This document shows, piece after piece, positions 13,197 to 59,192 of a stretch of 64,000 nucleotides of DNA. Positions within the stretch are counted from its first letter, which is position 1; each line of letters starts with the position of its first letter. The DNA comes from a candidate division WOR-3 bacterium (lineage in GTDB: Bacteria > Hydrothermota > Hydrothermia > UBA1063). The notes under the pieces were generated by a model. That model saw only the letters and a program-made list of their open reading frames with translations. It was not told where the DNA came from and did not search any database. The DNA is taken from assembly GCA_039803545.1 (NCBI GenBank), contig JBDRYS010000001.1:1866-65865 (forward strand), written 5' to 3'. The position numbers and the translations under genes are program-made.

Positions 13197-13232
13197 CTTC
13201 GACAAAATTTTCCATTTCGACAATTTTGTCGA
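13197..13232 (+). promoter_or_regulatory. Putative enhancer-binding-protein (UAS) site: perfect 7-2-7 palindrome TCGACAATTTTGTCGA (13217-13232) plus upstream half-site TCGACAAAATTTT
   Basis: Seen directly in sequence, about 45 bp upstream of a sigma-54 -24 element. The motif resembles the palindrome at 32432-32450. Confidence 0.5.
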
Positions 13233-13274
13233 GAATGGACAAGGAAGATGCCTTTGAAGAACTAAAAAAGTGTT

Positions 13275-13290
13275 TGGCACAAAATTTGCA
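13275..13290 (+). promoter_or_regulatory. Sigma-54 (RpoN) -24/-12 promoter TGGCACaaaatTTGCA upstream of the 13324 gene
   Basis: Exact match to the TGGCAC-N5-TTGCA consensus, about 33 nt before the ATG, with RBS AGGAGG at 13312-13317. Confidence 0.6.
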
Positions 13291-13323: not shown

Positions 13324-13884
13324 ATGAGGTACACCAACATAATAAAAATAGCATGGCTCCCTCTCCTTCTGGGCTTGGCCTTTGCCCAGGAGAATACAGG
13401 TACACAAAAGGACTCAACAAACAATTACCGCTACCGGGAACAGTACAGGTATCAGGAACACGTCAGGAATCAAGGGGATACGATTAAGGTAATGTCGGGT
13501 GAGAGGATAATGAATCAGGGGGATACGATACAAATTCGGACTACGAAATCTGTTAAAAATCCTGCAGTACAGAGTGAAATGACCGTTGAAAAAACTATAT
13601 CCAAAGATGGAAACACTCTCATTCAGATTGAAAAAACAGTTATCACGCCAAAGGATACTATTACCATTCAAAAGGAAGTGGGTTCAGCGAGCAGAGATAC
13701 TGTGAGGACAAGGGAACGCCAGAGGATAAGGAACGATTCTGGTTGTGATGGAACTCCAGACACGTTAAGGATTAGGGAAAGAGAACACTTGAGATTAAGG
13801 GATGGTAGCTCCTCAGGAAGCGAAGGAATTGGGACTGGTTTAGGATCCGGCGCGACGCAGAGAAGAAGTAGAAGAAGTAATTAA
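13324..13884 (+). CDS. Secreted low-complexity protein (signal peptide; NQGDTI repeats; R/E-rich tail), unknown function
   Basis: N-terminal signal peptide (WLPLLLGLAFAQ), internal short repeats, followed by a strong terminator. Confidence 0.5.
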   Translation: MRYTNIIKIAWLPLLLGLAFAQENTGTQKDSTNNYRYREQYRYQEHVRNQGDTIKVMSGERIMNQGDTIQIRTTKSVKNPAVQSEMTVEKTISKDGNTLIQIEKTVITPKDTITIQKEVGSASRDTVRTRERQRIRNDSGCDGTPDTLRIREREHLRLRDGSSSGSEGIGTGLGSGATQRRSRRSN

Positions 13885-13897
13885 TAGCCAACTCTTT

Positions 13898-13941
13898 GGG
13901 GCGCACACGGTCAAAGACCGTGTGCGCCCCCTTATAATTTT
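13898..13941 (+). terminator. Rho-independent terminator (15-bp GC-rich stem GGGGCGCACACGGTC/GACCGTGTGCGCCCC, loop AAA, T-rich tail)
   Basis: Perfect inverted repeat seen directly, 14 nt after the stop codon of the 13324-13884 gene. Confidence 0.8.
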
Positions 13942-13955
13942 AACAGGAGGTTCAA

Positions 13956-14999
13956 ATGTTAATTTTCATATTGTTTCAGTTAACTCAGCTAAACCTTAGT
14001 TTCCATAGGGGATTCGATACGAATTTGATGCTGGACACCAGTTATCTTCATGATTATTACAACGGGCTGGATCTTACCTTTGGTCACTACCCCATTGAGA
14101 AACCATGGGGATATGAATTGGCTCTTGGTGGTAGCTTTTTTGACAATTACACAAGCATGAACTTTTTAACTTTTCGTGGCAACCTGTCTTATTTTAAGGA
14201 TTTTGGAGAAGCGGGAAACTACATGGAAAGCGGGGTCGATTTTACATGGGATGTTATATCACCGTACAAATCTTTAACTATAACGCCCGGTGTTGCATCT
14301 AAAATTTATCTTGGGGAAAAGAAGATGTTTAATATTATCCCGAGCTGGGATTTAAATCTCTTGTTAGCTGACGAAAGTTATAATTTCGACAATATTCCAA
14401 AATTGAGGCTTAATGGCAATTTCTTTGGAATTTCAGCGGCACTAACAGGGATGTTAAAATGGAGGTACGGTGCAACCTATGTTGTCTCTTCAACAGGGAT
14501 AGGATATTCGCCTTACGCGGCCCGTTATACCTGGGTTACAAAAAGTCTTTCTGCGGGAAATGCCGGTATCAGATTGGGAAAAAGGTTTGGTGGCCTTCTG
14601 GGTATATTCTATGAATTTGATTATCACTTTTTGCCCACCAGCAACTTAGTAAGTGTGGATAATCTAAAACAAAGGCTTGATCCACTTAACGAGGAAGAGT
14701 TTGCGTACAGTGGAATTTCCAATACCTTTAATGTAAGTTTAATAGTTAGCAAGGTAGCAATTGATTATACCTTTGCGTTGAGTTCTAAGGATTATAGTAT
14801 TGTCGATACTACCCAATCACCTGTTTCACGCCATGACAATGTGTTGGTTCACAGCATTACTGGCAGTATTTCCCTTTTTAAAAAGAGATTTGAGGTTGGT
14901 TTATCCGGCTTTTTCCGTTACGAATCCAATACCTCAACAATGCAAGGATTTTCCTATACACGAAAAGAGGGTGGCGTTGGGCTTTATATGGGCTTATAG
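13956..14999 (+). CDS. Hypothetical outer-membrane beta-barrel-like protein
   Basis: Alternating hydrophobic/aromatic beta-strand-like pattern, rich in G/Y/S/T; no catalytic motif identified. Confidence 0.4.
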   Translation: MLIFILFQLTQLNLSFHRGFDTNLMLDTSYLHDYYNGLDLTFGHYPIEKPWGYELALGGSFFDNYTSMNFLTFRGNLSYFKDFGEAGNYMESGVDFTWDVISPYKSLTITPGVASKIYLGEKKMFNIIPSWDLNLLLADESYNFDNIPKLRLNGNFFGISAALTGMLKWRYGATYVVSSTGIGYSPYAARYTWVTKSLSAGNAGIRLGKRFGGLLGIFYEFDYHFLPTSNLVSVDNLKQRLDPLNEEEFAYSGISNTFNVSLIVSKVAIDYTFALSSKDYSIVDTTQSPVSRHDNVLVHSITGSISLFKKRFEVGLSGFFRYESNTSTMQGFSYTRKEGGVGLYMGL

Positions 15000-15002
15000 G
15001 AG

Positions 15003-15434
15003 GTGTTTATGCACTTTTTGCTTTTAGTTGTTTTAACGGTGATCCCAAAGTATTTTTACAATGTTAGTGATACTGCAACGGTTAAGGGAGAAGTACTCAG
15101 TGTTGAAAGGGAGCAGATAGAAGGAAGTGAAGTTTATCATGTTGTGTTATCTTTTAAAAGCGTTGACACCACTTTAAAAGTGGTATTGGGACCAGCCTGG
15201 TTCATTGAGGAGATACCGAGGAGAGGTGATTCCTGTGTGGTAAGTGGGTCTGTTTTTAGGACAGAAAATGGAATATACTTAATCGCGAGAAAACTGTTTA
15301 ACAGCAGAACAAAGACCTCTATGTCACTGAGGACAGAAAGTGGATTTCCTCTCTGGTATAGACAAAGAGCTTCTGAAAGGTTTATGGATCGGGCTGAAGG
15401 GGGGCAGAATAGGCAGAGGCAAAGGCAAAGGTAA
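15003..15434 (+). CDS. Small secreted/periplasmic hypothetical protein (possible OB-fold), immediately upstream of the sensor kinase
   Basis: N-terminal hydrophobic signal-like segment; C-terminal QNRQRQRQR tail; start abuts the histidine kinase gene. Confidence 0.4.
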   Translation: MFMHFLLLVVLTVIPKYFYNVSDTATVKGEVLSVEREQIEGSEVYHVVLSFKSVDTTLKVVLGPAWFIEEIPRRGDSCVVSGSVFRTENGIYLIARKLFNSRTKTSMSLRTESGFPLWYRQRASERFMDRAEGGQNRQRQRQR

Positions 15435-15437
15435 TTA

Positions 15438-16667
15438 ATGAATTTTAGAAAACTTGTTCTTGTTTTCTTCATTGATATTGTGTTAGTAGTTTCTTTTTTC
15501 GTCTATTTAGTCCAAGAACAGCAAAGGATTTTTAGGGAAGAAAGCAAAAGAGACGCTCAACTTCGATCTGTGCTTGTACGCCAGATGTTTTCCCACCTGG
15601 TAAAGAGTGGAAAAGAAATAGACGACTCACTCTTGAAAGTTGTAGTAGATTCTACAAACCTTGATTATGTTGCCCTCCTGGGAGGAAGAAAACTTCTTCA
15701 CTGGGCTTCGAAATATGAAGGTTTTTTACCCGTCGAGAGTTTTGAAGAGATAAAACCGGGTCGAGTGAGGTTGATTAAACTTCCAGATTATTCGATAGTC
15801 GAATTTTCTTTTTATTTAGATTCCACTATAGTTGTTTGTGGCTTTTCCGATGAACCTTTTTCCAAATTAACGAGGATCACTGTGTATGGTATGGCATTTT
15901 TAGTGGTAGTGTTGTTGATAATATTCGGCATTACTACGTTTTCCTTTTATTTTTTAAATCGGAAGCTCAAAGAGAGGGAGCTGGTCCTCGTCAAAGAGGA
16001 AGAAAAGGCAAAGTATTTCAGGGAACTTGCAGGATTTTCAAGCCAGGTTGCTCATGAGATAAAGAACCCTTTAAATTCAATAAGTATGGCTATACAGCTT
16101 GCCAAACAGAAAGGTTTGTCAGGAGATTTGCTGAAAATTATAGAAGATGAAACAAACAGGTTAAATTCGATAGTTAAACGCTTTTCTTCTGTTTCCAAAG
16201 GGATAGAGATGCACTTGGAAGAGGTAGATTTGACGAAAGTGGTAAGTGATGTTATCACTGATGCAAAGGTCTTTGCCACGGCATATGGGGTTAAAATAGA
16301 ATTTAATGCAAATGGGTTTTCTCAAAAGGTTAAAACGGACCCCTTATTGCTAAAACAGGCTCTTTTTAATATAATTAAAAATGCCATCGAGGCCTTTGAA
16401 GGAGTTTTTAGAGAAGAGAAAGTGGTAAAAGTCAACCTCAAAAAAGAAAAAAGGAAGGTTATTATATCCATTGAAGATAATGGTTCGGGAATGACTGATG
16501 AGGAGGTAAAGAGGGCCTTTGACTTATTTTACTCGACCAAATCTCAGGGTATGGGACTGGGTTTAAGTGTGGTGCGAAGAATTATGGATGCCCTTGGTGG
16601 AGAAGTCAGGTTGGTGAGCAAGAAAGGCGAAGGGACGAAGGTGGAGTTAATTCTTACCCATGGCTGA
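15438..16667 (+). CDS. Sensor histidine kinase (two TM helices flanking an extracytoplasmic sensor region; HisKA + HATPase_c)
   Basis: H-box FSSQVAHEIKNPLNSI; N/G boxes IIKNAIEAF, IEDNGSGM, GMGLGLSVV. Confidence 0.85.
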   Translation: MNFRKLVLVFFIDIVLVVSFFVYLVQEQQRIFREESKRDAQLRSVLVRQMFSHLVKSGKEIDDSLLKVVVDSTNLDYVALLGGRKLLHWASKYEGFLPVESFEEIKPGRVRLIKLPDYSIVEFSFYLDSTIVVCGFSDEPFSKLTRITVYGMAFLVVVLLIIFGITTFSFYFLNRKLKERELVLVKEEEKAKYFRELAGFSSQVAHEIKNPLNSISMAIQLAKQKGLSGDLLKIIEDETNRLNSIVKRFSSVSKGIEMHLEEVDLTKVVSDVITDAKVFATAYGVKIEFNANGFSQKVKTDPLLLKQALFNIIKNAIEAFEGVFREEKVVKVNLKKEKRKVIISIEDNGSGMTDEEVKRAFDLFYSTKSQGMGLGLSVVRRIMDALGGEVRLVSKKGEGTKVELILTHG

Positions 16668-18039
16668 GGAATATACAATTTTAGTCGTCGAAGACGAAGA
16701 AAATGCGCGTAAACTCCTTCTGGAATATTTAGGGAATAACGGATATAAAGTTTTTGGCTGTGCCACCGGCGAGGAGGCACTTCAATTTTGCAGGGAAAAT
16801 TTTGTCGATTTTGCACTGCTCGATATAAGGCTACCCGGAGTGAGCGGGATAGATCTCATTCCAAAGCTTAAGGAAACAAATCCCCTTATAAAGGTCATAA
16901 TGGTTACTGCCCTTGGTGATGTAGATTTGGTTGTAAGGGCTATGTCTATGGGCGCTTCAGATTACGTGGTTAAACCCGTAAACCTTGAAAAACTGTTAGC
17001 AAAAATCGAGGAGATAAAGCCCAAACATATTGAGGAAGTGGAATTAAAGGCTATCAAAGATATCTCTGAACTTCACCTCCCTGAGTTTGTATACGCATCT
17101 GACAAGATGAAGAAAGTGCTTTATTATGTAGTGAGAGCAGCCCGATCCAATGCGCCCTGTTTGATAACAGGTGAAACGGGTACAGGAAAGACTGCCCTTG
17201 CACGAATTATCCATTCCCTTTCTTCGAGGAGAGACGGCCCCTTTGTGGATGTTCATTTACAATCTATACCTGAGACCCTCATTGAAAGTGAACTTTTCGG
17301 ATATGAAAAGGGAGCCTTTACCGGTGCCGATAAGAGCTACGAGGGGCTTATAGTAAGGGCTCAAGGAGGCACCCTTTTCCTTGATGAAATCGGGGAGCTC
17401 AAAAGAGAAATGCAGGTAAAATTGCTTAAGGTGATTGAAGAAAAAATGGTTAGACCGGTAGGTGGAACGCAGCCCAAAAAGGTGGATTTTCGTTTAATTA
17501 CTGCAACTAACAGGGATATTAAAAAAGAAGTCAAACAGGGCACTTTTCGAGAGGATCTTTACTATCGAATCAATGTGATTGAAATTGCTGTTCCACCCCT
17601 AAGGGAGCGGAGGGAGGATATTCCTGTTTTATTGGATTATTTTCTCAAGAAATACAGTAAATCAGAAGGAAAAGAAATAAAGGGCTTTTCAAAGGAGGCG
17701 CTAAAATACCTTTTAAGGTATCACTACCCTGGCAATGTTAGAGAGTTGAGCAATATTGTGGAGAGAGCAACCGTAATGGCTACCAAAAACGTAATAGACG
17801 TGAGTGATTTACCTGAAGAAGTTGTGAGAAGTAGTGCTGCTCATAGCAAATTTGTTTCAGGCGGTGTAACTACTTTGCCAGAGGTCTTAAAGGAGATCGA
17901 AAAGAATATGATCCTTGAAGCTCTAAAGGAGGAAAATTTTGTAAAATTAAGGGCAGCGAAGAAACTTGGGATTTCAGAACGTGTTCTAAGGTATAAAATG
18001 AAGTTATATGGAATTGAAGATGGAAAGGGCGATAGTTAA
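16660..18039 (+). CDS. Sigma-54-dependent response regulator (NtrC family: receiver + AAA+ sigma-54 activator + Fis-type HTH)
   Basis: Receiver (LLDIRLPGVSGIDL), Walker A GETGTGKT, GAFTGA sigma-54 contact motif, ESELFGYEKGAFTGA, C-terminal HTH (KLRAAKKLGISERVLRYKMK). Confidence 0.9.
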   Translation: MAEEYTILVVEDEENARKLLLEYLGNNGYKVFGCATGEEALQFCRENFVDFALLDIRLPGVSGIDLIPKLKETNPLIKVIMVTALGDVDLVVRAMSMGASDYVVKPVNLEKLLAKIEEIKPKHIEEVELKAIKDISELHLPEFVYASDKMKKVLYYVVRAARSNAPCLITGETGTGKTALARIIHSLSSRRDGPFVDVHLQSIPETLIESELFGYEKGAFTGADKSYEGLIVRAQGGTLFLDEIGELKREMQVKLLKVIEEKMVRPVGGTQPKKVDFRLITATNRDIKKEVKQGTFREDLYYRINVIEIAVPPLRERREDIPVLLDYFLKKYSKSEGKEIKGFSKEALKYLLRYHYPGNVRELSNIVERATVMATKNVIDVSDLPEEVVRSSAAHSKFVSGGVTTLPEVLKEIEKNMILEALKEENFVKLRAAKKLGISERVLRYKMKLYGIEDGKGDS

Positions 18040-31398: not shown

Positions 31399-32430
31399 AT
31401 GGCGAAAATAACAAAAATTTCCTTAGAGAGTAGGGTCTATTACTATGAAAAACCCTTTCACATAACGGGTAGTGTATCATCAGCTTCCACCAATGTCGAA
31501 GTCTTGATAGAGACCCAAGAAGGTATAAAGGGTTATGGAGAGGCTTCTCCCTCTTTCAGAGTTAACGGAGAGAAACCCGAAGCCCTTGTGGCAATGGAGT
31601 CCTTTGTAAACGAAAATTTAAACTCTAAGAACACAGATAGGTGGAGAGAAATTTTTGATTTTACTGATAAATTAATCGCTTCTCCCAGCTTAAAGGCAGC
31701 CCTTCAGTGGGCGGTAATCTCAATTTTTTGCACTGAACACGGAATAACCCCCTTTGAGTTTTTTGGCGGTGCAAAAAAGGAAATTGAAACTGACAAGACG
31801 GTAGGAATTGATACCGTTGAAAATCGAGTTAAAGAGGCAGAGACAATTTTTTCTGAAGGTTTCAGAGTTATTAAGATAAAGGTTGGTGAAAATTTCAAGG
31901 AAGACATTGAAGCGGTGCTTAAAATAAGTGAAAGGACCAGAGGCGCAACTTATATCGTTGATGCCAATATGGGTTACACACCAAAGCAGGCTATTGATTT
32001 TGCGAAGAAGCTCTACCAGGAAGGCGTTAATGTGGCGGTATTTGAGCAACCAGTACATTACCAGGATCTGGATGGGCTTAAATTTGTCAGGTTCCATTCC
32101 CCCTTTCCCGTCGCAGCCGACGAGTCAGCAAAGACTAAGTTCGATGTATACAGGCTCCTTAAAAATGAAGTGGTAGATTATGTTAATATAAAACTTATGA
32201 AATCGGGGATTTCTGATGCGATGGCAATCGTCGAGATGGCGAGAAGTAGCGGAATAAGGCTTATGATTGGTTGTATGGGGGAATCAAGTCTCGGAATAAA
32301 TCAGAGCGTTATGTTTGCCCTTGGTACTGGTGCCTTTGATTTTCACGACTTAGATTCCCACCTTCTGCTAAAAGAGGATGTCTTCAGGGGAAATTTTAAA
32401 CAGGTGGGGCCAAGGATAATGATTCCTTAA
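31399..32430 (+). CDS. Enolase-superfamily dipeptide epimerase / mandelate racemase-muconate lactonizing enzyme family protein
   Basis: KIKVG, DANMGY, FEQP metal-ligand motif spacing typical of L-Ala-D/L-Glu epimerase-like members. Confidence 0.7.
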   Translation: MAKITKISLESRVYYYEKPFHITGSVSSASTNVEVLIETQEGIKGYGEASPSFRVNGEKPEALVAMESFVNENLNSKNTDRWREIFDFTDKLIASPSLKAALQWAVISIFCTEHGITPFEFFGGAKKEIETDKTVGIDTVENRVKEAETIFSEGFRVIKIKVGENFKEDIEAVLKISERTRGATYIVDANMGYTPKQAIDFAKKLYQEGVNVAVFEQPVHYQDLDGLKFVRFHSPFPVAADESAKTKFDVYRLLKNEVVDYVNIKLMKSGISDAMAIVEMARSSGIRLMIGCMGESSLGINQSVMFALGTGAFDFHDLDSHLLLKEDVFRGNFKQVGPRIMIP

Positions 32431-32431
32431 T

Positions 32432-32481
32432 TTGCACAATTTTTGTGCAATATAGATCCCTTTTGCATAATTTTTGTTCAA
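32432..32481 (+). promoter_or_regulatory. Tandem putative enhancer (UAS) sites: perfect palindrome TTGCACAATTTTTGTGCAA (32432-32450) and degenerate copy TTTGCATAATTTTTGTTCAA (32462-32481)
   Basis: Inverted repeat seen directly, 50-80 bp upstream of a sigma-54 promoter. Confidence 0.55.
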
Positions 32482-32497
32482 AAGCACCTTTTACTTT

Positions 32498-32513
32498 TGG
32501 CACACTTTTTGCA
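32498..32513 (+). promoter_or_regulatory. Sigma-54 (RpoN) -24/-12 promoter TGGCACactttTTGCA upstream of the 32537 operon
   Basis: Exact TGGCAC-N5-TTGCA consensus, 24 nt before the ATG; RBS AAGGAGG at 32524-32530. Confidence 0.6.
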
Positions 32514-32536
32514 CTTTATTGTAAAGGAGGTGCAAA

Positions 32537-33325
32537 ATGAGGTTTAGAATCCATCAAAGGTTACTTTTAAAGTCAGCTTTTCTTTTCTCAATTTTAGCTC
32601 TCTCCTGTCAAAATGTTGATACTACACCGCCAGCTGCGCCCACAGGCCTTACCAGTGTCACCGGCGATAGAGCGGTATATCTTTACTGGAATCCTAATAA
32701 AGAAAAGGACCTTGCTGGTTATCGGGTTTACAGAAACACTGCCCCATCGGGTTACTTTATGATGATTGCAGATGTAAGGGAAAATAGTTATGTGGACAGG
32801 GATGTGGAAAATGGCATCACTTATTATTACGCAGTAAGTGCCTATGATTCTGCAGGAAATGAAAGTGAACTTTCTCAAAAAGATTGTTTCGATACCCCGC
32901 GCCCCGAGGGGTACAATATGAAAATCTACGAAAAAGACTACTTACCATCCTTTTCTGGATATTGTTTTAACAAATATAGCCCTGTCCCTTATAACTCTGC
33001 AGATGCCGATTTTTACTTTGATGTTCAGAGTGGTACTGCCAGGATTGTAGCCAGTGTTGGGACTTTGATTCAGGATATGGGAGCTTACAATATGGATGAT
33101 ATCTCCTATGCGCCCTTGACGGGGTGGGATTCCGATGGAGTGCTGGATGCAATTCAAGGGCATGTCTATGTAGTTTGGACAAGGGATAATCACTTTGCTA
33201 AATTTCGAATAAAGGTTCTGGATAATACTTTCCTTGTATTTGATTGGGCGTATCAGGTGGCGGTAGGGAACAGGGAATTGGTGAAGAAAAATTTAATAGA
33301 AAACAAGGGGGTGTCCCATGATTAA
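32537..33325 (+). CDS. Lipoprotein with fibronectin type III domain
   Basis: Signal peptide plus lipobox (ILALSC); PAAPTGLTSV...YRVYR...YYYAVSAYDSAGNES FN3 signature. Confidence 0.55.
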   Translation: MRFRIHQRLLLKSAFLFSILALSCQNVDTTPPAAPTGLTSVTGDRAVYLYWNPNKEKDLAGYRVYRNTAPSGYFMMIADVRENSYVDRDVENGITYYYAVSAYDSAGNESELSQKDCFDTPRPEGYNMKIYEKDYLPSFSGYCFNKYSPVPYNSADADFYFDVQSGTARIVASVGTLIQDMGAYNMDDISYAPLTGWDSDGVLDAIQGHVYVVWTRDNHFAKFRIKVLDNTFLVFDWAYQVAVGNRELVKKNLIENKGVSHD

Positions 33326-35114
33326 GCTTTTGATGTTAATCTCTTTGATGTACTCTGGGGCTGAGTTCGCCCGGGTGGGCGACCTCAGAGGCGATGCAAA
33401 GATTTGGAGATATGGTGAAGAAGGTTCCGAATGGTTAACCATAAATAACATAATCGGTGAAGGCGATGAATTACTCACCTACGATGATTCTTACCTTGAA
33501 ATAGAGTTCAGTGACGGTTCTGTTTTAACCCTTGGGAATAACACCAGTGTCTACTTTGATCGCATTGAGGATGACAGGACTTACTTTACATTGAACAAAG
33601 GGGTCGCGAGAGTTTATGCTCGTGAGAGAGTTTTCGGAGTTTTTGCCGGTGATCATGCAGTTTACGTAGAGGAAGGTTCTATTGTGCGGGTGGAATCTGA
33701 TAGTGATTACTTCCTCGCAAGGGTATATAGGGGTAGTGCCGAAGTTGACAAGAAGAAAATTTATGCGGGGTCTGAGGTAATTATAGATAGAGGTAGGTAT
33801 TACTCAGGGAGGGCTGGAAGTTATGATCGGTTAGACAGATGGGCAGAGGAGAGGGAAAGGAATTATTATGTAATTACGAGGGTCGAATATGTTCCTGTAC
33901 GTTGCTATATAGGCATTTATCATCTTCATAGACATGGTAGATGGGTCTTCATCCGCCCTTATGGTTGGGTTTGGGTTCCGAGGGTGCCAAGATCCTGGAG
34001 ACCTTACTACGATGGATACTGGGTTTATAGACCGGGGCTCGGTTGGGTTTGGGTTTCTTATGAGCCATGGGGTTGGATTCCATATAGATACGGTAGCTGG
34101 ACTTACATTGTTGGCTATGGGTGGGTATGGATCCCAGGTGAAACCTTTGCTGGTGCCTGGGTAGAGTGGTATTATGGACCCGATTGGGTAGGGTGGGCTC
34201 CCATTGACTATTATGGAAAGCCGATTATTGTAGTGAACAACATAACGGTGGTAAATATTGTTAGCAAGGAAGACTTCCATAAACCTATCTATCGCTATAA
34301 GCCACCAAAATCTGGCGTCTATAAAGAGGTTTATAAGCCTTACAAAGGCGTTGATGTGAAAGAAGTTGTTAGGTATAAGGCGACGGAGCTGGAAAAGCCG
34401 ATTTACTTTAAGAAAGTGGATGTGGTAAAGGAAGAGGAAAAGCCAATAATACATGGGAAAGGCGAGCTAATAAAGGTAAAGACAGTGGAAAAAGACCTTG
34501 GAGAAAATAGAGGGGGCCAGTTATACCCGGAAAGGCCAGTGGTGGAGAAGAAGGCCGATGTGAGGATAGAAAAAGAGGTGCAAGTAGAGGAAAAGTTGAA
34601 ACCAAAGGAAAAGGAGGTTGAAAAACCTTTAACGAAGGAGAAGACCTTGGAGAAGGAGTCAGGTACAAACGTAATACCTGAAAAACCTGTTAAGAGGGTA
34701 GAAGAGGAGGAATCGAAGCCCGAAATATATCCAGAAAGGCCTTCTTATAGAGACTACAAGTCTAAGCTTCTCGAAAAAGAAGATTATGAAAGGCCGAGGG
34801 GAGAGACACCGACCCGTAGGGAGAGTAGCGTTAAAGAGGAGAGAAGAACAGAGGTAAGGCCTTATACGCCCCCTGCTATTGAAAGAAAGACTTTTAAAGA
34901 AGAGGGCTCAGATGGAAGGAGTTGGTATCGATACAAGGAGGCGGAAAAGGTCAAGGTAGAGGACAAGGCTAAGGGTCGTGTTATTCCTGAAGTCAAAGCA
35001 CTTAGTCCCTCCGATAATATTCCCCAGAATAAACCGGAACTTAAAAAGAGAGTTGAAAAGAAAGCCGAAGAGGATGATAATCATAAAAATGTCAAAGGGG
35101 AGGATGAGAAATGA
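33318..35114 (+). CDS. FecR-domain protein with Trp-rich (GWxWxP) repeat region and long K/E-rich low-complexity C-terminal tail
   Basis: Signal peptide; FecR-like segment (GDELLTYDDSYLEIEFSDGSVLTLGNNTSVYF); then YGWVWVPRVPRSWRPYYDGYWVYRPGLGWVWVSYEPWGWIPYRYG... repeats; then EKPxxK-type charged repeats. Confidence 0.5.
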   Translation: MIKLLMLISLMYSGAEFARVGDLRGDAKIWRYGEEGSEWLTINNIIGEGDELLTYDDSYLEIEFSDGSVLTLGNNTSVYFDRIEDDRTYFTLNKGVARVYARERVFGVFAGDHAVYVEEGSIVRVESDSDYFLARVYRGSAEVDKKKIYAGSEVIIDRGRYYSGRAGSYDRLDRWAEERERNYYVITRVEYVPVRCYIGIYHLHRHGRWVFIRPYGWVWVPRVPRSWRPYYDGYWVYRPGLGWVWVSYEPWGWIPYRYGSWTYIVGYGWVWIPGETFAGAWVEWYYGPDWVGWAPIDYYGKPIIVVNNITVVNIVSKEDFHKPIYRYKPPKSGVYKEVYKPYKGVDVKEVVRYKATELEKPIYFKKVDVVKEEEKPIIHGKGELIKVKTVEKDLGENRGGQLYPERPVVEKKADVRIEKEVQVEEKLKPKEKEVEKPLTKEKTLEKESGTNVIPEKPVKRVEEEESKPEIYPERPSYRDYKSKLLEKEDYERPRGETPTRRESSVKEERRTEVRPYTPPAIERKTFKEEGSDGRSWYRYKEAEKVKVEDKAKGRVIPEVKALSPSDNIPQNKPELKKRVEKKAEEDDNHKNVKGEDEK

Positions 35115-35341
35115 GACGGGTGTTAATTTTGATTTTTATTCTCTTTACACAAGGCTTTTCCTACGGGGGAGAAGGGGATACTATCCCCTCTCCTCCTTCC
35201 AAGGCCCAAAATTCCCAGGTTAAAATAGAAAAGAAAAAATTTAAAGACGAGAATAAAGATGGGTTCAACGATCTCAGAGATAAAGGTGATTACGAGAAAT
35301 TATTAAAAGAGGTGTTGAAAGAGAGGAAGGGTAAAAGATGA
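35111..35341 (+). CDS. Small secreted hypothetical protein
   Basis: 76-aa ORF with N-terminal hydrophobic segment; translationally coupled within the operon. Confidence 0.35.
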   Translation: MRRVLILIFILFTQGFSYGGEGDTIPSPPSKAQNSQVKIEKKKFKDENKDGFNDLRDKGDYEKLLKEVLKERKGKR

Positions 35342-35715
35342 AGCGCTTAGTTTTTATTTTCTCTGCCTTTCTGCTTCTTTCCTGCGGATATAAAGCTCCC
35401 CCACCGGGTAAACCAGACATCAATCCTCCCCAGGTACGAATAACTTACCCTCAGGAGGGCGACACGGTTTATACAGATACTTCTGTAAGTTTTCTGATAA
35501 ATGATGAATCCCAGATCAAGAGGGTTGCCTTAATTATAAATGAAAAGGCAGTGAGAGTGGATTCAGCCCCTCCCTTTACTCTCCCCCTCAAGTTAGAGGA
35601 TATTCAGGATTCTGTAGCAATAATTAAGGTAAGGGCAGTGGACATATGGGATAATACGGGTGAGTCGAAACCTGTGAAGGTTTTCCGCCCTTTAATGAAG
35701 GAAGAGGAGGATTGA
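35338..35715 (+). CDS. Small lipoprotein with Ig-like/BIG-type domain
   Basis: Lipobox LLLSCGY; beta-rich domain (PPQVRITYPQEGDTVYTDTSVSF...VRAVDIWDNTG). Confidence 0.45.
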   Translation: MKRLVFIFSAFLLLSCGYKAPPPGKPDINPPQVRITYPQEGDTVYTDTSVSFLINDESQIKRVALIINEKAVRVDSAPPFTLPLKLEDIQDSVAIIKVRAVDIWDNTGESKPVKVFRPLMKEEED

Positions 35716-54533: not shown

Positions 54534-57500
54534 ATGTTAAAACGTGTGCTCCTAATATCCGCCTTGCTGGGTATGGTTTGGGCCCAGAAGGCAAAAGTGG
54601 AAGAAATGCCACCAATACCTGTGGAGACGCCTATGTGGATTGGTGGCGAATCGAAGGCTCCCGCTCCGGTGATCGATACAAACTGGATATACTCGGGCTC
54701 TACTGCAAACCTCACACGAAAGGTTGCCGTTGGAAAGTATTTCAAGGGCCCAAGTGATGACACGCTCAGAGTTTTGACTGTCCAAAGCGGTGGAACGAGG
54801 TACTTAGTGATTGCCACCGATACCACAACTACTGGGTTTGGGACGAGGAAGTTTAGAATCGATACCACGATTACCTTCCCTACCGGTGCCACTGAAGCGT
54901 CCATTGCCGTTGGGGATGTGGATGGTGATGGAGTAACGGATATTCTAACGGGTGATAATGCTGCTGTAAGTGGTAAGGTCTGGCTCAGAAGGTTCAAATG
55001 GGATGGTACAAACTGGGTTAGGGTTGATAGTATTGGGGTTGGTTCTTCAGATTACATAAATGATATAGTTATTGCCGATGCTGATAACGATGGCGCTTCA
55101 GAGGTGCTTTTCAACCTCGCCAATAATACTAATTCTGCTATAATGGTCGCCAAATGGAATCCCCTATCGAGTGGCTGGGATACGACCAGGATTACCTTTG
55201 GCAGGACCCAAAGATATAGAGGCGTAGCGGTGGGCGATGTAATTCCCGAAATTCCTGGTAATGAGGTTTACATTTGTGGTGGGACAGATTTTGCGATGGC
55301 ATACTGGAACGGTACCCAATGGGTAACTCAAGTGATCACCACCGCTCTCTCTTCCTGCTGGGACCTTGTGATTGGAGACATAGACCCCACTCTACCCGGT
55401 AATGAAATTGCCATTGTTCATGGATCTACATCCTATCAAATTAGTGTATGGAATTATGATTCGAACTCACAAACCTTTTATGGAAGAGCGTGGAATATCC
55501 TTGGAAGCTCCTGGGGAACGAGCGGAAACAACGACATAACTATTGGTGACTTCCTCAGGGAAACACCCGGAAACGAGGTGGTATTGTCCAACACCGGTAC
55601 TACTACTACGAACCCCTCTATATGGTTTAACATCAGTCCGAACGGTAGAGTGTATGCAGGAGCTTTGCGAAAGCTTGGAGCTTATGCGGATTACGGTGTT
55701 CTAATTGCCGATGTGAACAGGTGGAGAACTGGTAACGAACTGGTGATGTCCGCCGGTGGAAATCTGGTGGAGATGGAGCAGAGGATCCTTGCCAACGATG
55801 TTGCCCTTCTTTCTGCTACAAGAACCCTTTCCCTTTTGAAGGCAGGGGTTTATGATACCCTTAATGTGGAAATTTCCAACCCTGGAACGACACCAGTATC
55901 TTCTGTTAATTTTAACATTTCTTCCACCAATGGACGTGTACCTACCCAGACAGTCAATGTGCCGGTTACACTCAATCCCGGTGATATAGCACTTGTTAAA
56001 GTTCCTTACCAGATAGGTACAAGCCTCGGCATCGATACGCTGTTTGTTTCCCTTGCCGATGCCGATGATAACACAGCCAACAACGGTCCGGCTAAACTTT
56101 ATGTAGAAATCTGGGATGATTCAACGGTTGCTGCAACCTCTTTCTCCGAATCTCCATTCCCCTTAGGTTGGAACAGGGTAATTCTCTCTGGTAGTTATAA
56201 CTGGACCAGGGTCACATCCGGCTCTTACCCTACCGTTTCACCCCTTGATGCCCCGGCAATGGCGATGTATCAATCCTACTCGGCCACTTCCGGCTCTGGT
56301 GCAAGGCTCATATCCCCGAAGATCAATGTGGGCAGTGTAGCGAGGAAGGTGAAACTGAGATTCTATATGGTTCATGACAATGGGTATTCGACAAGCTACG
56401 ATTCCCTTTATGTTGAATACTCCCTTGATGGAGTCAATTTCTACACCCTTGCAGGATTTCAGCGCTATGATTCGGCTGCGACGACCCCTACCTGGACACC
56501 CCATGAAGTAGAGATCGGTGATTTTTCTGGTGGCACTGAACTTTATGTGGCCATAAGGGCACAAAGTGGATATGGTAACAACATGTTTATAGACTCGGTA
56601 AGAACATTTACTACTACCCCCACTGCACCTGCCAATGACGCCCAGATTCTAAGTGTCTCTGTTCCTAAGCCGGTAATACAGAACGAGGGAAGTCCCGTGA
56701 CCATAACCTTCAAGAACAGTGGCCTTGACCCCATTACCTCTATTCAGCTCTACTATACCCTTGGCGGTGCTGATACTACCTGGGAGACCTGGACTGGGAA
56801 CCTGCCGGGTGGAAGTTCGCAGGTCTACACCTTCGCTACTCCGTTTACGCCTGCCGATACCGGCGAGTTTACTCTTTACGCCGGAGTGAAACTCACTGGT
56901 GATGCAAACCCTGACAATGATACGATTTCCACAGCGATTCATGTCTGGCCCTATATGCAAGCACTTCCTTACAGTGAGAACTTTGATGAGAACTGGACCA
57001 ATTCCACCAACCCTCCTTACGGTGGCTGGAAGATTATCGACGGTGGAGATGAGGCAGTACCTGCTGTTAATACCAATGACTGGCACAGGTATGTGGTAAC
57101 TACTCCCGCAAGGACGGTGGCCAGGGTTTACTACTCACCTATAGAAAATCAGGATGACTGGCTGATTTCACCGAGGCTCAAAATAATGGGCTATGGAACT
57201 TATACATTGAACTACTGGCATTACTATAGGGACTACTCGACCTCATCTCCCGACTCTGGACAGGTTTTGATTTCCTTTGACGATGGTGCAACCTGGATTG
57301 AACTTACAAGGTATTCCAATGCGAGTGATAGTGGCTCGAGGTCTATAGACCTTACGCCATACATTGCACCAAGGGTTGGAACTGTTCAATACTTTAGAAT
57401 AGCCTTCCATTACGGTGCAAGGGATGAATTCTACTGGTATGTTGACGACTTCTCTGTGACCTTTGCTCCCGATATTACGCCACCTGTAGTTAATTTGATC

Positions 57501-59192
57501 AGGGATGTCCATGATTCTTACAATACCGGTCCCGATACCGTGATCTTCGAAGTAGGTGACATCTCACCCTTCTCCGTTAACGCCTTTGTCGTAGTTAATG
57601 ATACGATTATCAAAGACACGACCATTGATTTTGGTCCAGGGATTGATACAGTGGTGGTAGAAATTCCTGGTAGGCCTCAGGGAACCGTTTACGATGGTTA
57701 CATTTATGTTGAAGATGCTAATCAAAACAGCTGGATGACCCAGGGTACATGGTGGAAACTCTATGCCTATACGCCCAGCACCCCTGCCCTTACACCGATT
57801 ACAACGCCGCAGAAGGGAGTGAGACTCTCCTGGTCCAGTCCAAGACAGATCTTGAGATACGATGGCGGTGAGGCCTATTACTTCACAGGCCTTAATCCGG
57901 GCGATATCATTTCAGTGAGATTCACACCTCAATACACACCTGCCAGGATAGATAGTGTAGTTGCCCTCTTCTACGGAACTTCCAATCAGATGCACCTTAA
58001 GATTTACAATGACAACAACGGTGTTCCCGGTAATGTAATATTCGATACCCTTATTACCGTTCCTGTTTATCCTACACTTCTAAGGCTTAATCTTTCCAAT
58101 AAGAACATCGTTGTTAACGGGCAGTACCACATTGGCTTTGAGTGGACCGTTGCTGACCAACCCTATCCGATTAGTGATGCTGGTGCAAATACAAATAGGA
58201 GCCTTTACTATGATGCAAACAGTGCCCAATGGTATGCTGCCGGATACGACTGGTTTATAATAAGTGCGGTTACCTACCTGCCTCAGAGCAAGGCCTATGC
58301 AGGAAGTTACAGCACAGCAAAACTCCTTAAAGAACATAATCTGAAGAGAGTTGAACTGCCGCAAGTTGCGGTCAAAGAAGAGAGAGACGAGGGCTCAAAG
58401 TACATCCAGAAGTACACGATCTTAAGGTCAACCACCTCTGGTGGACCTTATGACTCCATTGGAGTTTCAACAGTCACAACTTACGAAGATTTCACTCTTG
58501 CTACAGGCAATACATATTACTATGTGGTTAGAATGGACTACCTCTCACCCGATACGATGACCTATGGCGATGAGGCGAGCATCACCACCGATTTGGTTGG
58601 ACCTGAATTTTCCTCCTTTGCCTACGACACTGGCGGTGTTAATAATATCTGGGTTAGTGTTGCCATCACCGATCCATCGGGGATTAATGGCGATACTCTC
58701 TACTATTCCATCAATGGCGGTAATTTCGCTTTTGCAATGCATGACAGTGTGGTTGGTTCCACCTATTTCTACACTATACCAGGCCTCAATGTGGGTGACA
58801 ATGTAGACCTCTACTTCGTTGCCCTTGACAACTCTCCATGGCATAACCTGTCAAGGTATCCTGAAACGGGATACATCACCTTCCTTGTTACCTCTGTGAC
58901 CGGCGAGAAGCCCAGTATGTACGCCTTTAATATTAAAGGTTCTAATGTAAGCGGAAAGGCTATGGAGTTTGCCTATGCGCTTCCTGAGAAATCAGATGTG
59001 GAAATTGCCATTTACTCTGTGACGGGTCAGAGGGTTGCTACCCTTGTCAAAGGTGCGAAGGATGCTGGTTACTACACGGTGAGATGGAATGGCACCGATG
59101 ACAGAGGCTCTAAGGTTGGTTCTGGTGTTTACATCGTGAAGATGGTTACACCGAAGAAGAACTTCACAGAAAGGATAATACTCACGAAGTAG
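54534..59192 (+). CDS. Giant secreted FG-GAP/VCBS-repeat adhesin-like protein with T9SS-type C-terminal domain
   Basis: Signal peptide; repeated VGDVDGDGVTDIL / IADADNDGASEVL FG-GAP-like motifs; beta-sandwich-rich middle; C-terminus VEIAIYSVTGQRVATLV...GYYTVRWNGTDDRGSKVGSGVYIVKM (FlgD-Ig / T9SS CTD). Confidence 0.7.
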   Translation: MLKRVLLISALLGMVWAQKAKVEEMPPIPVETPMWIGGESKAPAPVIDTNWIYSGSTANLTRKVAVGKYFKGPSDDTLRVLTVQSGGTRYLVIATDTTTTGFGTRKFRIDTTITFPTGATEASIAVGDVDGDGVTDILTGDNAAVSGKVWLRRFKWDGTNWVRVDSIGVGSSDYINDIVIADADNDGASEVLFNLANNTNSAIMVAKWNPLSSGWDTTRITFGRTQRYRGVAVGDVIPEIPGNEVYICGGTDFAMAYWNGTQWVTQVITTALSSCWDLVIGDIDPTLPGNEIAIVHGSTSYQISVWNYDSNSQTFYGRAWNILGSSWGTSGNNDITIGDFLRETPGNEVVLSNTGTTTTNPSIWFNISPNGRVYAGALRKLGAYADYGVLIADVNRWRTGNELVMSAGGNLVEMEQRILANDVALLSATRTLSLLKAGVYDTLNVEISNPGTTPVSSVNFNISSTNGRVPTQTVNVPVTLNPGDIALVKVPYQIGTSLGIDTLFVSLADADDNTANNGPAKLYVEIWDDSTVAATSFSESPFPLGWNRVILSGSYNWTRVTSGSYPTVSPLDAPAMAMYQSYSATSGSGARLISPKINVGSVARKVKLRFYMVHDNGYSTSYDSLYVEYSLDGVNFYTLAGFQRYDSAATTPTWTPHEVEIGDFSGGTELYVAIRAQSGYGNNMFIDSVRTFTTTPTAPANDAQILSVSVPKPVIQNEGSPVTITFKNSGLDPITSIQLYYTLGGADTTWETWTGNLPGGSSQVYTFATPFTPADTGEFTLYAGVKLTGDANPDNDTISTAIHVWPYMQALPYSENFDENWTNSTNPPYGGWKIIDGGDEAVPAVNTNDWHRYVVTTPARTVARVYYSPIENQDDWLISPRLKIMGYGTYTLNYWHYYRDYSTSSPDSGQVLISFDDGATWIELTRYSNASDSGSRSIDLTPYIAPRVGTVQYFRIAFHYGARDEFYWYVDDFSVTFAPDITPPVVNLIRDVHDSYNTGPDTVIFEVGDISPFSVNAFVVVNDTIIKDTTIDFGPGIDTVVVEIPGRPQGTVYDGYIYVEDANQNSWMTQGTWWKLYAYTPSTPALTPITTPQKGVRLSWSSPRQILRYDGGEAYYFTGLNPGDIISVRFTPQYTPARIDSVVALFYGTSNQMHLKIYNDNNGVPGNVIFDTLITVPVYPTLLRLNLSNKNIVVNGQYHIGFEWTVADQPYPISDAGANTNRSLYYDANSAQWYAAGYDWFIISAVTYLPQSKAYAGSYSTAKLLKEHNLKRVELPQVAVKEERDEGSKYIQKYTILRSTTSGGPYDSIGVSTVTTYEDFTLATGNTYYYVVRMDYLSPDTMTYGDEASITTDLVGPEFSSFAYDTGGVNNIWVSVAITDPSGINGDTLYYSINGGNFAFAMHDSVVGSTYFYTIPGLNVGDNVDLYFVALDNSPWHNLSRYPETGYITFLVTSVTGEKPSMYAFNIKGSNVSGKAMEFAYALPEKSDVEIAIYSVTGQRVATLVKGAKDAGYYTVRWNGTDDRGSKVGSGVYIVKMVTPKKNFTERIILTK

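Follow-up and report, generated by a model that had tools for sequence, protein, structure and literature searches.

We found that the 106-bp intergenic region at 32431 to 32536 of the window (the whole 64-kb stretch of DNA analyzed) has the features of an enhancer-dependent sigma-54 promoter with sites for an NtrC-family activator, placed ahead of an operon of exported proteins. Judging from the sequence, we put the probability of this reading at about 0.8. The first-pass annotation had described the region as a promoter activated by an enhancer-binding protein (EBP), and our analysis supports this. The promoter and palindrome elements occur far more often than expected by chance, the promoter is conserved in relatives, and the palindrome is found exclusively with the gene for an FN3 lipoprotein across several phyla. 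A second site lies in phase with the first, and in several lineages a gene for an activator or kinase adjoins the module. The window is chromosomal, since it carries housekeeping genes (HisRS, SSB, L9, the glycine-cleavage P protein, and PFOR) and RNase P RNA. The elements and genes of the region are as follows.

32432 to 32450: UAS1, TTGCACAAtttTTGTGCAA, a perfect 8-3-8 palindrome centered at about -82 from the predicted start; proposed strong site for an activator dimer

32463 to 32481: UAS2, TTGCATAAtttTTGTTCAA, a degenerate copy centered at about -51; proposed weaker second activator site

32498 to 32513, plus strand: sigma-54 promoter, TGGCACactttTTGCA, an exact consensus match that is invariant in the five closest relatives (L001 to L005)

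32524 ± 2 nt, plus strand: predicted transcription start, giving a leader of about 13 nt that would begin at the Shine-Dalgarno sequence

32524 to 32530, plus strand: Shine-Dalgarno sequence, AAGGAGG

32537 to 33325, plus strand: gene 1, starting with ATG at 32537, the conserved core gene of the module; a 262-aa lipoprotein (lipobox LALSC, Cys24 invariant) with an FN3 domain at about residues 29 to 120 and a C-terminal beta domain of HmuY-like fold at residues 118 to 246

33318 to 35114, plus strand: gene 2, a 598-aa exported protein with FecR and Trp-rich DUF6600 domains and a long Lys/Glu-rich low-complexity tail

35111 to 35341, plus strand: gene 3, a 76-aa exported acidic/basic protein with a signal peptide and the motif KDGFNDLRD

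35338 to 35715, plus strand: gene 4, the last gene, a 125-aa lipoprotein (lipobox LLSC) with an Ig-like Big_7 domain (Pfam, E = 2.6e-8)

Direct reading of the letters confirmed the TGGCAC-N5-TTGCA element of the first-pass annotation as an exact match. On the plus strand, the -24 element TGGCAC occupies 32498 to 32503, the spacer ACTTT occupies 32504 to 32508, and the -12 element TTGCA occupies 32509 to 32513. The GG (32499 to 32500) and GC (32511 to 32512) dinucleotides are separated by exactly one helical turn. A scan for the consensus bore this out: TGGCAC-N5-TTGCW has two exact matches in the 64 kb, compared with 0.06 expected from shuffles. Each match lies between genes, in the coding orientation and immediately 5' of a Shine-Dalgarno sequence and ATG. 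The other perfect promoter, at 13275 to 13290, heads the operon of an NtrC-like activator encoded at 16660 to 18039. In sigma-54 promoters the C of the -12 GC lies at position -12, and by this rule we predict that transcription starts near 32524. The GC is 25 nt 5' of the gene 1 ATG, which leaves space for the start site and the Shine-Dalgarno sequence.

The gene upstream, at 31399 to 32430 with its stop codon at 32428 to 32430, encodes an enolase-superfamily (MR_MLE) protein. A simple scan found neither a sigma-70-like promoter nor a terminator-like site in 32431 to 32536. Because the scan detected no terminator behind the upstream gene, some expression of the operon could also come from read-through. 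At Rfam gathering thresholds, RNase P RNA was the only hit in the window and the intergenic region was empty. Folding of the intergenic RNA was unremarkable (z = -1.84), and for this reason we rejected a terminator or riboswitch reading of the region. Using a search for the RpoN box motif, we found no rpoN in the window or in any of the 204 loci that we collected. Because the window holds neither rpoN nor the likely cognate activator, the use of sigma-54 by this organism is deduced indirectly, from an activator gene with the GAFTGA motif and from the second perfect promoter. We predict that the operon depends on RpoN.

The perfect 8-3-8 palindrome and degenerate second copy of the first-pass annotation were also evident on direct reading. 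UAS1 begins 2 nt past the upstream stop codon and reads TTGCACAA-TTT-TTGTGCAA; it is fully self-complementary, with the core TGCACA-N5-TGTGCA. An exact 8-3-8 palindrome of this kind occurs once in the window (0.00 expected). UAS2 reads TTGCATAA-TTT-TTGTTCAA, with two mismatches to the 17-nt core and 90% identity over 20 nt. From start to start the two sites are 31 bp apart, which is three helical turns, and the center of UAS1 is 57 to 58 bp 5' of the -24 GG. The earlier placement of the sites 50 to 80 bp upstream was approximately right, given centers at about -82 and -51. Enhancers usually lie 80 to 150 bp upstream of the promoter (PMC4987338), and these centers are at or inside the near limit of that range. 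No IHF-like site was evident. A repeat search reported the promoter as a third copy of the repeat at 70% identity. We excluded the idea that the promoter is merely such a copy, since lineages that lack the TGCACA palindrome still retain the GG, the TTG, and the spacing.

We compared 80 loci from a genome collection, one per species, each with an ortholog of gene 1. We scanned from -120 to +40 around the ortholog start, requiring GG and TG and matches at four or more of the five other positions. Of the 80 species, 74 have TGGCAY-N5-TTG no more than about 120 nt 5' of the ortholog, where about 2 would be expected from the background in the same loci (0.025 per 160 nt), although the species are related and the locus counts overstate the number of independent events. 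The lineages with the element are WOR-3, Hydrothermota, TA06, Stahlbacteria, Cloacimonadota, Zixibacteria, Eisenbacteria, Ignavibacteria, and Bacteroidota. In most loci the element starts 39 to 49 nt before the start codon, so a short leader is conserved too. Ignavibacteria mostly have TTGA, TTGG, or TTGT in place of TTGC at -12, and their dyad differs as well (TGTATA-N6-TRTACA).

The palindrome core TGCACA-N5-TGTGCA, with up to one mismatch, was found in 19 of the 80 loci, once in each and 67 to 149 nt upstream of the FN3 gene; these loci belong to WOR-3, Hydrothermota, TA06, Stahlbacteria, and Cloacimonadota. It was found nowhere else in the 764 kb of the loci. When we aligned the region with those of L001 to L005, the conserved islands were UAS1, part of UAS2, the -24/-12 element, the Shine-Dalgarno sequence, and the ATG, and the rest had diverged. 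The UAS1 core, like the promoter, is invariant in these five relatives. Beyond L004 the upstream neighbor changes and the palindrome remains with the FN3 gene, which indicates that it belongs to the downstream operon and not to a terminator of the upstream gene.

Most orthologous loci have a second, weaker site at ±20 to 21 or ±31 to 33 bp, which is two or three helical turns, at a threshold of three or fewer mismatches that random windows reach in about 2% of cases. In WOR-3 and Hydrothermota, UAS1 and the -24 element are separated by distances that fall into classes of 55 to 56, 65 to 67 (the class of the window), and 76 to 77 bp. These classes suggest helical phasing. For all 41 distances the phase statistics (R of about 0.45 to 0.5) were not decisive, because the Zixibacteria-like loci, at 82 bp, do not fit a 10.5-bp periodicity.

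The E. coli NtrC box is TGCACCAnnnTGGTGCA, of which GCAnnA...TnnTGC is the most conserved part (PMC8743547). The window site TGCACAAtttTTGTGCA agrees with it at 12 of the 14 specified positions, among them every position of the conserved core, and fits the 17-bp dyad form TGCAC-N7-GTGCA. We scanned a metagenome collection blindly for this dyad followed 38 to 68 nt later by TGGCAY-N5-TTG, and the scan returned 120 stretches. The FN3 lipoprotein gene was immediately 3' in 28 of them. Others carried genes of the classical NtrC regulon, namely, those for P-II, the ammonium transporter (Amt), glutamine synthetase, and Peripla_BP_5 proteins. Further groups encoded DUF6982 proteins, OMP-like proteins ending in FKFGxF, and a 380-aa secreted protein, and these three share the layout of the WOR-3 FN3 loci, in which UAS1 is followed by a half-site some 20 bp away and then by the promoter. 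Because a blind scan with the motif retrieves the classical NtrC regulon genes, we take the motif to be a genuine NtrC-type enhancer.

In several relatives, an activator gene lies directly upstream of the palindrome, promoter, and FN3 gene, ending 25 to 190 nt before the palindrome. This is the case in Hydrothermota (L009/L201), Ignavibacterium (L065), and metagenomes (L086, L093, L154/L160, and L162). The linked activators have an HTH_8 domain and share the sequence WNI(G/S)K.AE.LGIHRNTL..KIKEY; their RNTL recognition helix resembles that of NtrC (compare the NtrC-like EBP in L194). In L201 the order is a gene for a 642-aa PAS-HisKA kinase, a gene for a 436-aa activator, TTGCACAGAAACTGTGCAA, the promoter, the FN3 gene, a FecR/DUF6600 gene, and two small genes. 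In Eisenbacteria, activators of about 1,030 aa adjoin the FN3 gene instead, and in Ignavibacteria the operon itself encodes a 1,277-aa membrane kinase, downstream of the FN3 gene and of a gene for a DUF4783 protein.

None of the linked regulators reached an NCBIfam equivalog cutoff. Against TIGR01818, the NtrC equivalog, the linked activators scored 385 to 456 bits (cutoff, 558.6). The best similarities were to AtoC, NtrC, and ZraR for the activator and to AtoS and ZraS for the kinase. The linked-type kinases are 627 to 642 aa long and have a hydrophobic N terminus, as read by eye from the alignment, which suggests that the kinase of about 630 aa is membrane anchored.

The metagenome-assembled genome (MAG) of a close relative encodes an FN3 protein (P0002, MDI6850972) 79% identical to that of the window. 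At an unlinked locus it also encodes an activator of the LGIHRNTL type (P0279, MDI6851818) and a 627-aa kinase that aligns end to end with the L201 kinase, N-terminal part included. A profile search with the linked activators was dominated by Zixibacteria, and this ortholog was placed by a search with a Hydrothermota fragment together with accession numbers. No autoregulatory UAS was found near the unlinked two-component system in L203. Since the pair is unlinked from the FN3 gene in the close relative, the cognate kinase and activator of the window operon are most likely encoded outside the 64 kb, as orthologs of the L201 pair and of P0279 with its kinase.

The four genes overlap by 4 to 8 nt (33318/33325, 35111/35114, and 35338/35341), a layout that fits a single operon. 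The end of gene 4 is in turn overlapped by a convergent uppP gene, and the neighbors of the operon are enolase-superfamily, transglutaminase-like, uppP, and MerR genes. Pfam hits, signal peptides, and lipoboxes uphold the earlier descriptions of the products as an FN3 lipoprotein, a FecR-like protein, a small secreted protein, and an Ig-like lipoprotein. The statement that none of the four has a known function also still holds; to it we add the HmuY-like fold of the C-terminal domain of gene 1. The gene 1 protein has 4,300 homologs at an E value of ≤1e-3. The nearest named ones are from candidate division WOR-3 and Candidatus Hydrothermia, and distant ones (45 to 50% identity) are from KSB1, Ignavibacteria/Melioribacter, Gemmatimonadota, and Bacteroidota. 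Two histidines, H209 and H219, are invariant. Pfam HmuY gave no hit for gene 1 at an E value of ≤0.01, and there is no gene for a TonB-dependent receptor in the operon.

The gene 2 protein matches FecR (PF04773, 30.1 bits; cutoff, 24) and DUF6600 (E = 1e-25) and has no relative among PDB sequences. Its FecR domain starts at residue 51, straight after the signal peptide; we found no N-terminal cytoplasmic anti-sigma domain, no transmembrane helix, and no adjacent ECF sigma gene. An ortholog of gene 2 follows gene 1 in L001 to L005, L009, L031, and L201, and genes 3 and 4 are conserved in L001 to L005. Pfam and NCBIfam have no family for the gene 3 protein or for the three secreted proteins of the 13-kb operon, and among the other UAS-associated open reading frames they recognized nothing except DUF6982.

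The partners of the FN3 gene vary among lineages. In the window they are the FecR/DUF6600 protein, the small protein, and the Big_7 lipoprotein. In WOR-3, TA06, and Stahlbacteria they are a Trp/Tyr-rich protein whose tail is charged, a protein that falls into the same blastp cluster as the DUF4384/PEGA proteins, and a small D-G-x-N-D protein. DUF4384/PEGA proteins occur alone in other lineages, and DUF4783 occurs with the kinase in Ignavibacteria. Small D-G-x-N-D proteins resembling the gene 3 product are found in other operon types. All the partner proteins are exported, and aromatic-rich segments and long charged tails recur among them.

The first-pass annotation had put forward the NtrC-like protein encoded at 16660 to 18039 as a candidate for binding this fragment; on this alternative it would bind the palindromes, with the architecture otherwise as described here. 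This protein, a REC-AAA+-HTH_8 regulator, is the sole GAFTGA activator in the window, and both sigma-54 promoters of the window have upstream palindromes built on ACAA-Tn-TTGT. However, it is only 46 to 47% identical to the operon-linked activators, whereas these are 57 to 69% identical to one another, with 58% or more in comparisons across phyla. Its recognition helix reads LGISERVLRYK where the linked activators have LGIHRNTLR.K. Its own operon has a different palindrome before the promoter at 13275 to 13290, the dyad TCGACAA-TT-TTGTCGA, with another half-site and spacing (TCGACA-N4-TGTCGA). The occurrence of an LGIHRNTL-type activator and its kinase in the close relative also speaks against it. 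We consider it unlikely that this protein binds the palindromes, and it is probably not the cognate activator.

The palindromes might instead be sites for a repressor or a global factor, with the sigma-54 promoter activated from elsewhere or from solution. Palindromes of 17 to 19 bp are generic dimer sites, the binder is predicted from sequence, and UAS2, at about -51, is unusually near the promoter. This is nevertheless quite improbable, as the palindrome co-occurs with the sigma-54 promoter at quantized distances in every locus that bears it, matches the NtrC box, and, combined with the promoter, picks out the classical NtrC regulon. Moreover, at least six loci have an activator gene with an NtrC-like RNTL helix immediately next to the palindrome. 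Still less probable is that the palindrome is an RNA hairpin serving as an intrinsic terminator of the enolase-superfamily gene. Its place just past the stop codon and a possible 8-bp stem would fit, but the stem is AT rich with no T run after it, the terminator scan did not call it, and the folding score is unremarkable. The palindrome also stays with the FN3 gene where the upstream gene differs (L005, L006, L009, L016, and others), and in L201 about 80 nt separate it from the activator gene that precedes it. As for functionless matches, the region is AT rich and short consensus matches do arise by chance. The expected counts per window, the presence of the promoter in 74 of 80 species, and the exclusive placement of the palindrome effectively refute this explanation, to which we assign a negligible probability.

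Returning to the enhancer-dependent promoter, we infer that the standard sigma-54 mechanism (PMC4987338) applies to this operon. Sigma-54 RNA polymerase would bind the -24/-12 element as a closed complex. A membrane histidine kinase of about 630 aa would phosphorylate the NtrC-family REC-AAA+-HTH_8 regulator in response to a signal that is probably from the envelope or extracellular. Dimers of the activator would then bind the strong UAS1 and the weaker UAS2 on the same helix face. We further propose that the activator forms an ATPase ring, touches the polymerase across the short, T-tract-rich spacer, and opens the promoter. The transcript, with its short predicted leader, would encode four translationally coupled exported proteins.

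We tentatively suggest, as a reading we hold to be possible but rather less than even in likelihood, that the lipoprotein with FN3 and HmuY-like-fold domains and its variable partners are the ancestral dedicated output of an AtoSC/ZraSR-like sigma-54 two-component system. This system may mediate an envelope response, possibly to a tetrapyrrole, a metal, or an envelope defect. The partners in such a response would be Trp/Tyr-rich proteins carrying a long charged tail, proteins of the DUF4384/PEGA or FecR kind, and small D-G-x-N-D proteins. The lineages would be WOR-3/Hydrothermota, TA06, Zixibacteria, Cloacimonadota, Eisenbacteria, and Ignavibacteria. If true, this would be an undescribed system whose role resembles that of Zra or Psp in Proteobacteria.

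The regulatory logic of a sigma-54 promoter, an NtrC-type enhancer, and a two-component activator is textbook; what is new is the place of its use. In dozens of species, which represent eight or more phylum-level lineages with few cultured members, the same promoter precedes the same uncharacterized lipoprotein gene. Our literature search found no papers on DUF6600 or on sigma-54 in WOR-3, and the text of a 2025 survey of sigma-54 regulons (PMC12316311) gave no match when searched for Ignavibacteria, fibronectin, or FecR. The added value lies in the conservation across phyla and in the prediction of the regulator. The analysis yields a well-supported cis-regulatory annotation in a candidate phylum without genetics and a specific candidate regulator, an activator of the LGIHRNTL type rather than the one encoded in the window. 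It also offers a way into a widespread exported protein family, for which the inducing signal would probably reveal the role.

Among known systems, glnAp2 of enterobacteria, controlled by NtrB and NtrC, also has a -24/-12 element and tandem 17-bp dyads about three helical turns apart. The two strong NtrC sites of glnAp2 are about 32 bp apart, compared with 31 bp in the window. The linked activators resemble NtrC in their REC-AAA+-HTH_8 architecture and RNTL helix. In contrast to glnAp2, the targets in the window are exported envelope proteins and not nitrogen assimilation genes, and the enhancer is nearer the promoter (-82/-51 rather than about -140/-108). NtrB is cytoplasmic, whereas the linked kinase, of about 630 to 640 aa, is a putative membrane protein. 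Because the identity of the activator, the type of kinase, and the target genes all differ from those of NtrBC, we conclude that the window element is not part of the NtrBC nitrogen regulon.

The ZraSR-zraP and AtoSC systems are alike in combining a membrane sensor kinase and an NtrC-family activator with a sigma-54 promoter and periplasmic or envelope protein targets. ZraR responds to envelope stress (PMC4987338). The linked pair scores well below the equivalog cutoffs for these systems, the phyla differ, no ZraP-like gene is present, and in the lineage of the window the two-component system genes lie apart from the target operon. The pspA promoter, activated by PspF, is likewise a dedicated sigma-54 promoter of an envelope-related operon with tandem sites fairly near the promoter. 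PspF, however, has no receiver domain, is controlled by PspA, and recognizes an unrelated enhancer sequence (table in PMC4987338), and there are no Psp homologs here. Among the products, the C-terminal domain of gene 1 shares its fold with HmuY, the heme-binding lipoproteins of Bacteroidota, at 12 to 19% identity. The gene 1 domain is 129 aa long and fused to FN3, whereas HmuY is about 180 aa long.

We found a second perfect sigma-54 promoter in the window, with an operon behind it:

13275-13290, sigma-54 promoter TGGCACaaaatTTGCA, 34 nt ahead of an SD and ATG
13324-18039, operon behind this promoter

Upstream of the promoter (region 13198-13290) are two TTCGACAA repeats that lie 18 bp apart, with the palindrome TCGACAAttTTGTCGA formed by the second of these. 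In the operon are genes for three exported proteins, for which a family search returned no match, together with those for a 409-aa histidine kinase and the only enhancer-binding protein of the window. We concluded that this operon is probably under autoregulation, with an enhancer of its own.

The layout of the FN3 lipoprotein gene's promoter was also found ahead of other genes, in metagenome contigs L090, L113, L120, L170, L181, L193, and L197; L081, L119, L192, and L199; L139, L150, and L182; and L087, L128, and L179. Here, UAS1 (the palindrome proposed as an activator site) comes first; about 20 bp further on is a half-site, then an element resembling GAAATTTC, and finally the sigma-54 promoter. 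Behind it are genes for DUF6982 proteins, a secreted protein of 380 aa, and OMP-like proteins with an FKFGxF end. In related organisms, these may be further genes of the regulon to which the FN3 operon belongs.

Operons headed by orthologs of the FN3 lipoprotein gene differ between lineages. At the loci of Eisenbacteria and relatives (L024, L032, L069, and L071), an enhancer-binding protein gene lies immediately 5' of the FN3 gene. Its products are unusually large (about 1020 to 1076 aa), and their HTH differs, reading SYP.LL.KI. The Ignavibacteria/Melioribacter loci (L010, L015, L020 to L022, L025 to L028, L030, and others) combine the FN3 gene with a DUF4783 gene and a gene for a multi-pass membrane histidine kinase of ~1277 aa, followed by a UvrD/AddA-like helicase gene. 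The -12 element in these loci is mostly TTGA, TTGG, or TTGT, a dyad of the TGTATA-N6-TRTACA type is found upstream in several (seven in the motif scan), and no activator gene adjoins the operon.

We compared the small exported proteins of differing operon types:

window 35111-35341
L006 (comparison locus) 7408-7776
L016 (comparison locus) 7526-7909
L040 (comparison locus) 4061-4915

These proteins share acidic D-G-x-N-D motifs, which look like calcium-binding repeats, and Lys-rich tails. In two unrelated lineages, Hsp33 and HrcA chaperone/stress genes lie directly 3' of the FN3 operon (Hydrothermota locus L201, 7454-8341; Ignavibacterium locus L065, 7714-8760), a weak hint of a stress link.

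The window has other features besides these:

805-3990, exported peptidase C25 (gingipain-like), 1061 aa
36811-37179 (-), class A RNase P RNA of the bacterial type, 275 bits
47783-49951 (-), exported GH18 chitinase with SH3 domains
54534-59192, exported FG-GAP protein, 1552 aa, FlgD_ig-like domain at its end

The RNase P RNA lies just past the convergent uppP and MerR-family genes. The peptidase, chitinase, and FG-GAP protein are large exported proteins, and their C-terminal domains may be secretion tags.

A repeat search of 32431-32516 scored the sigma-54 promoter ahead of the FN3 gene as a third copy of the 20-nt enhancer unit (70% identity), the three copies being spaced 31 and 35 bp apart. 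The -24 element of this promoter, TGGCAC, resembles the NtrC-type half-site TGCAC.
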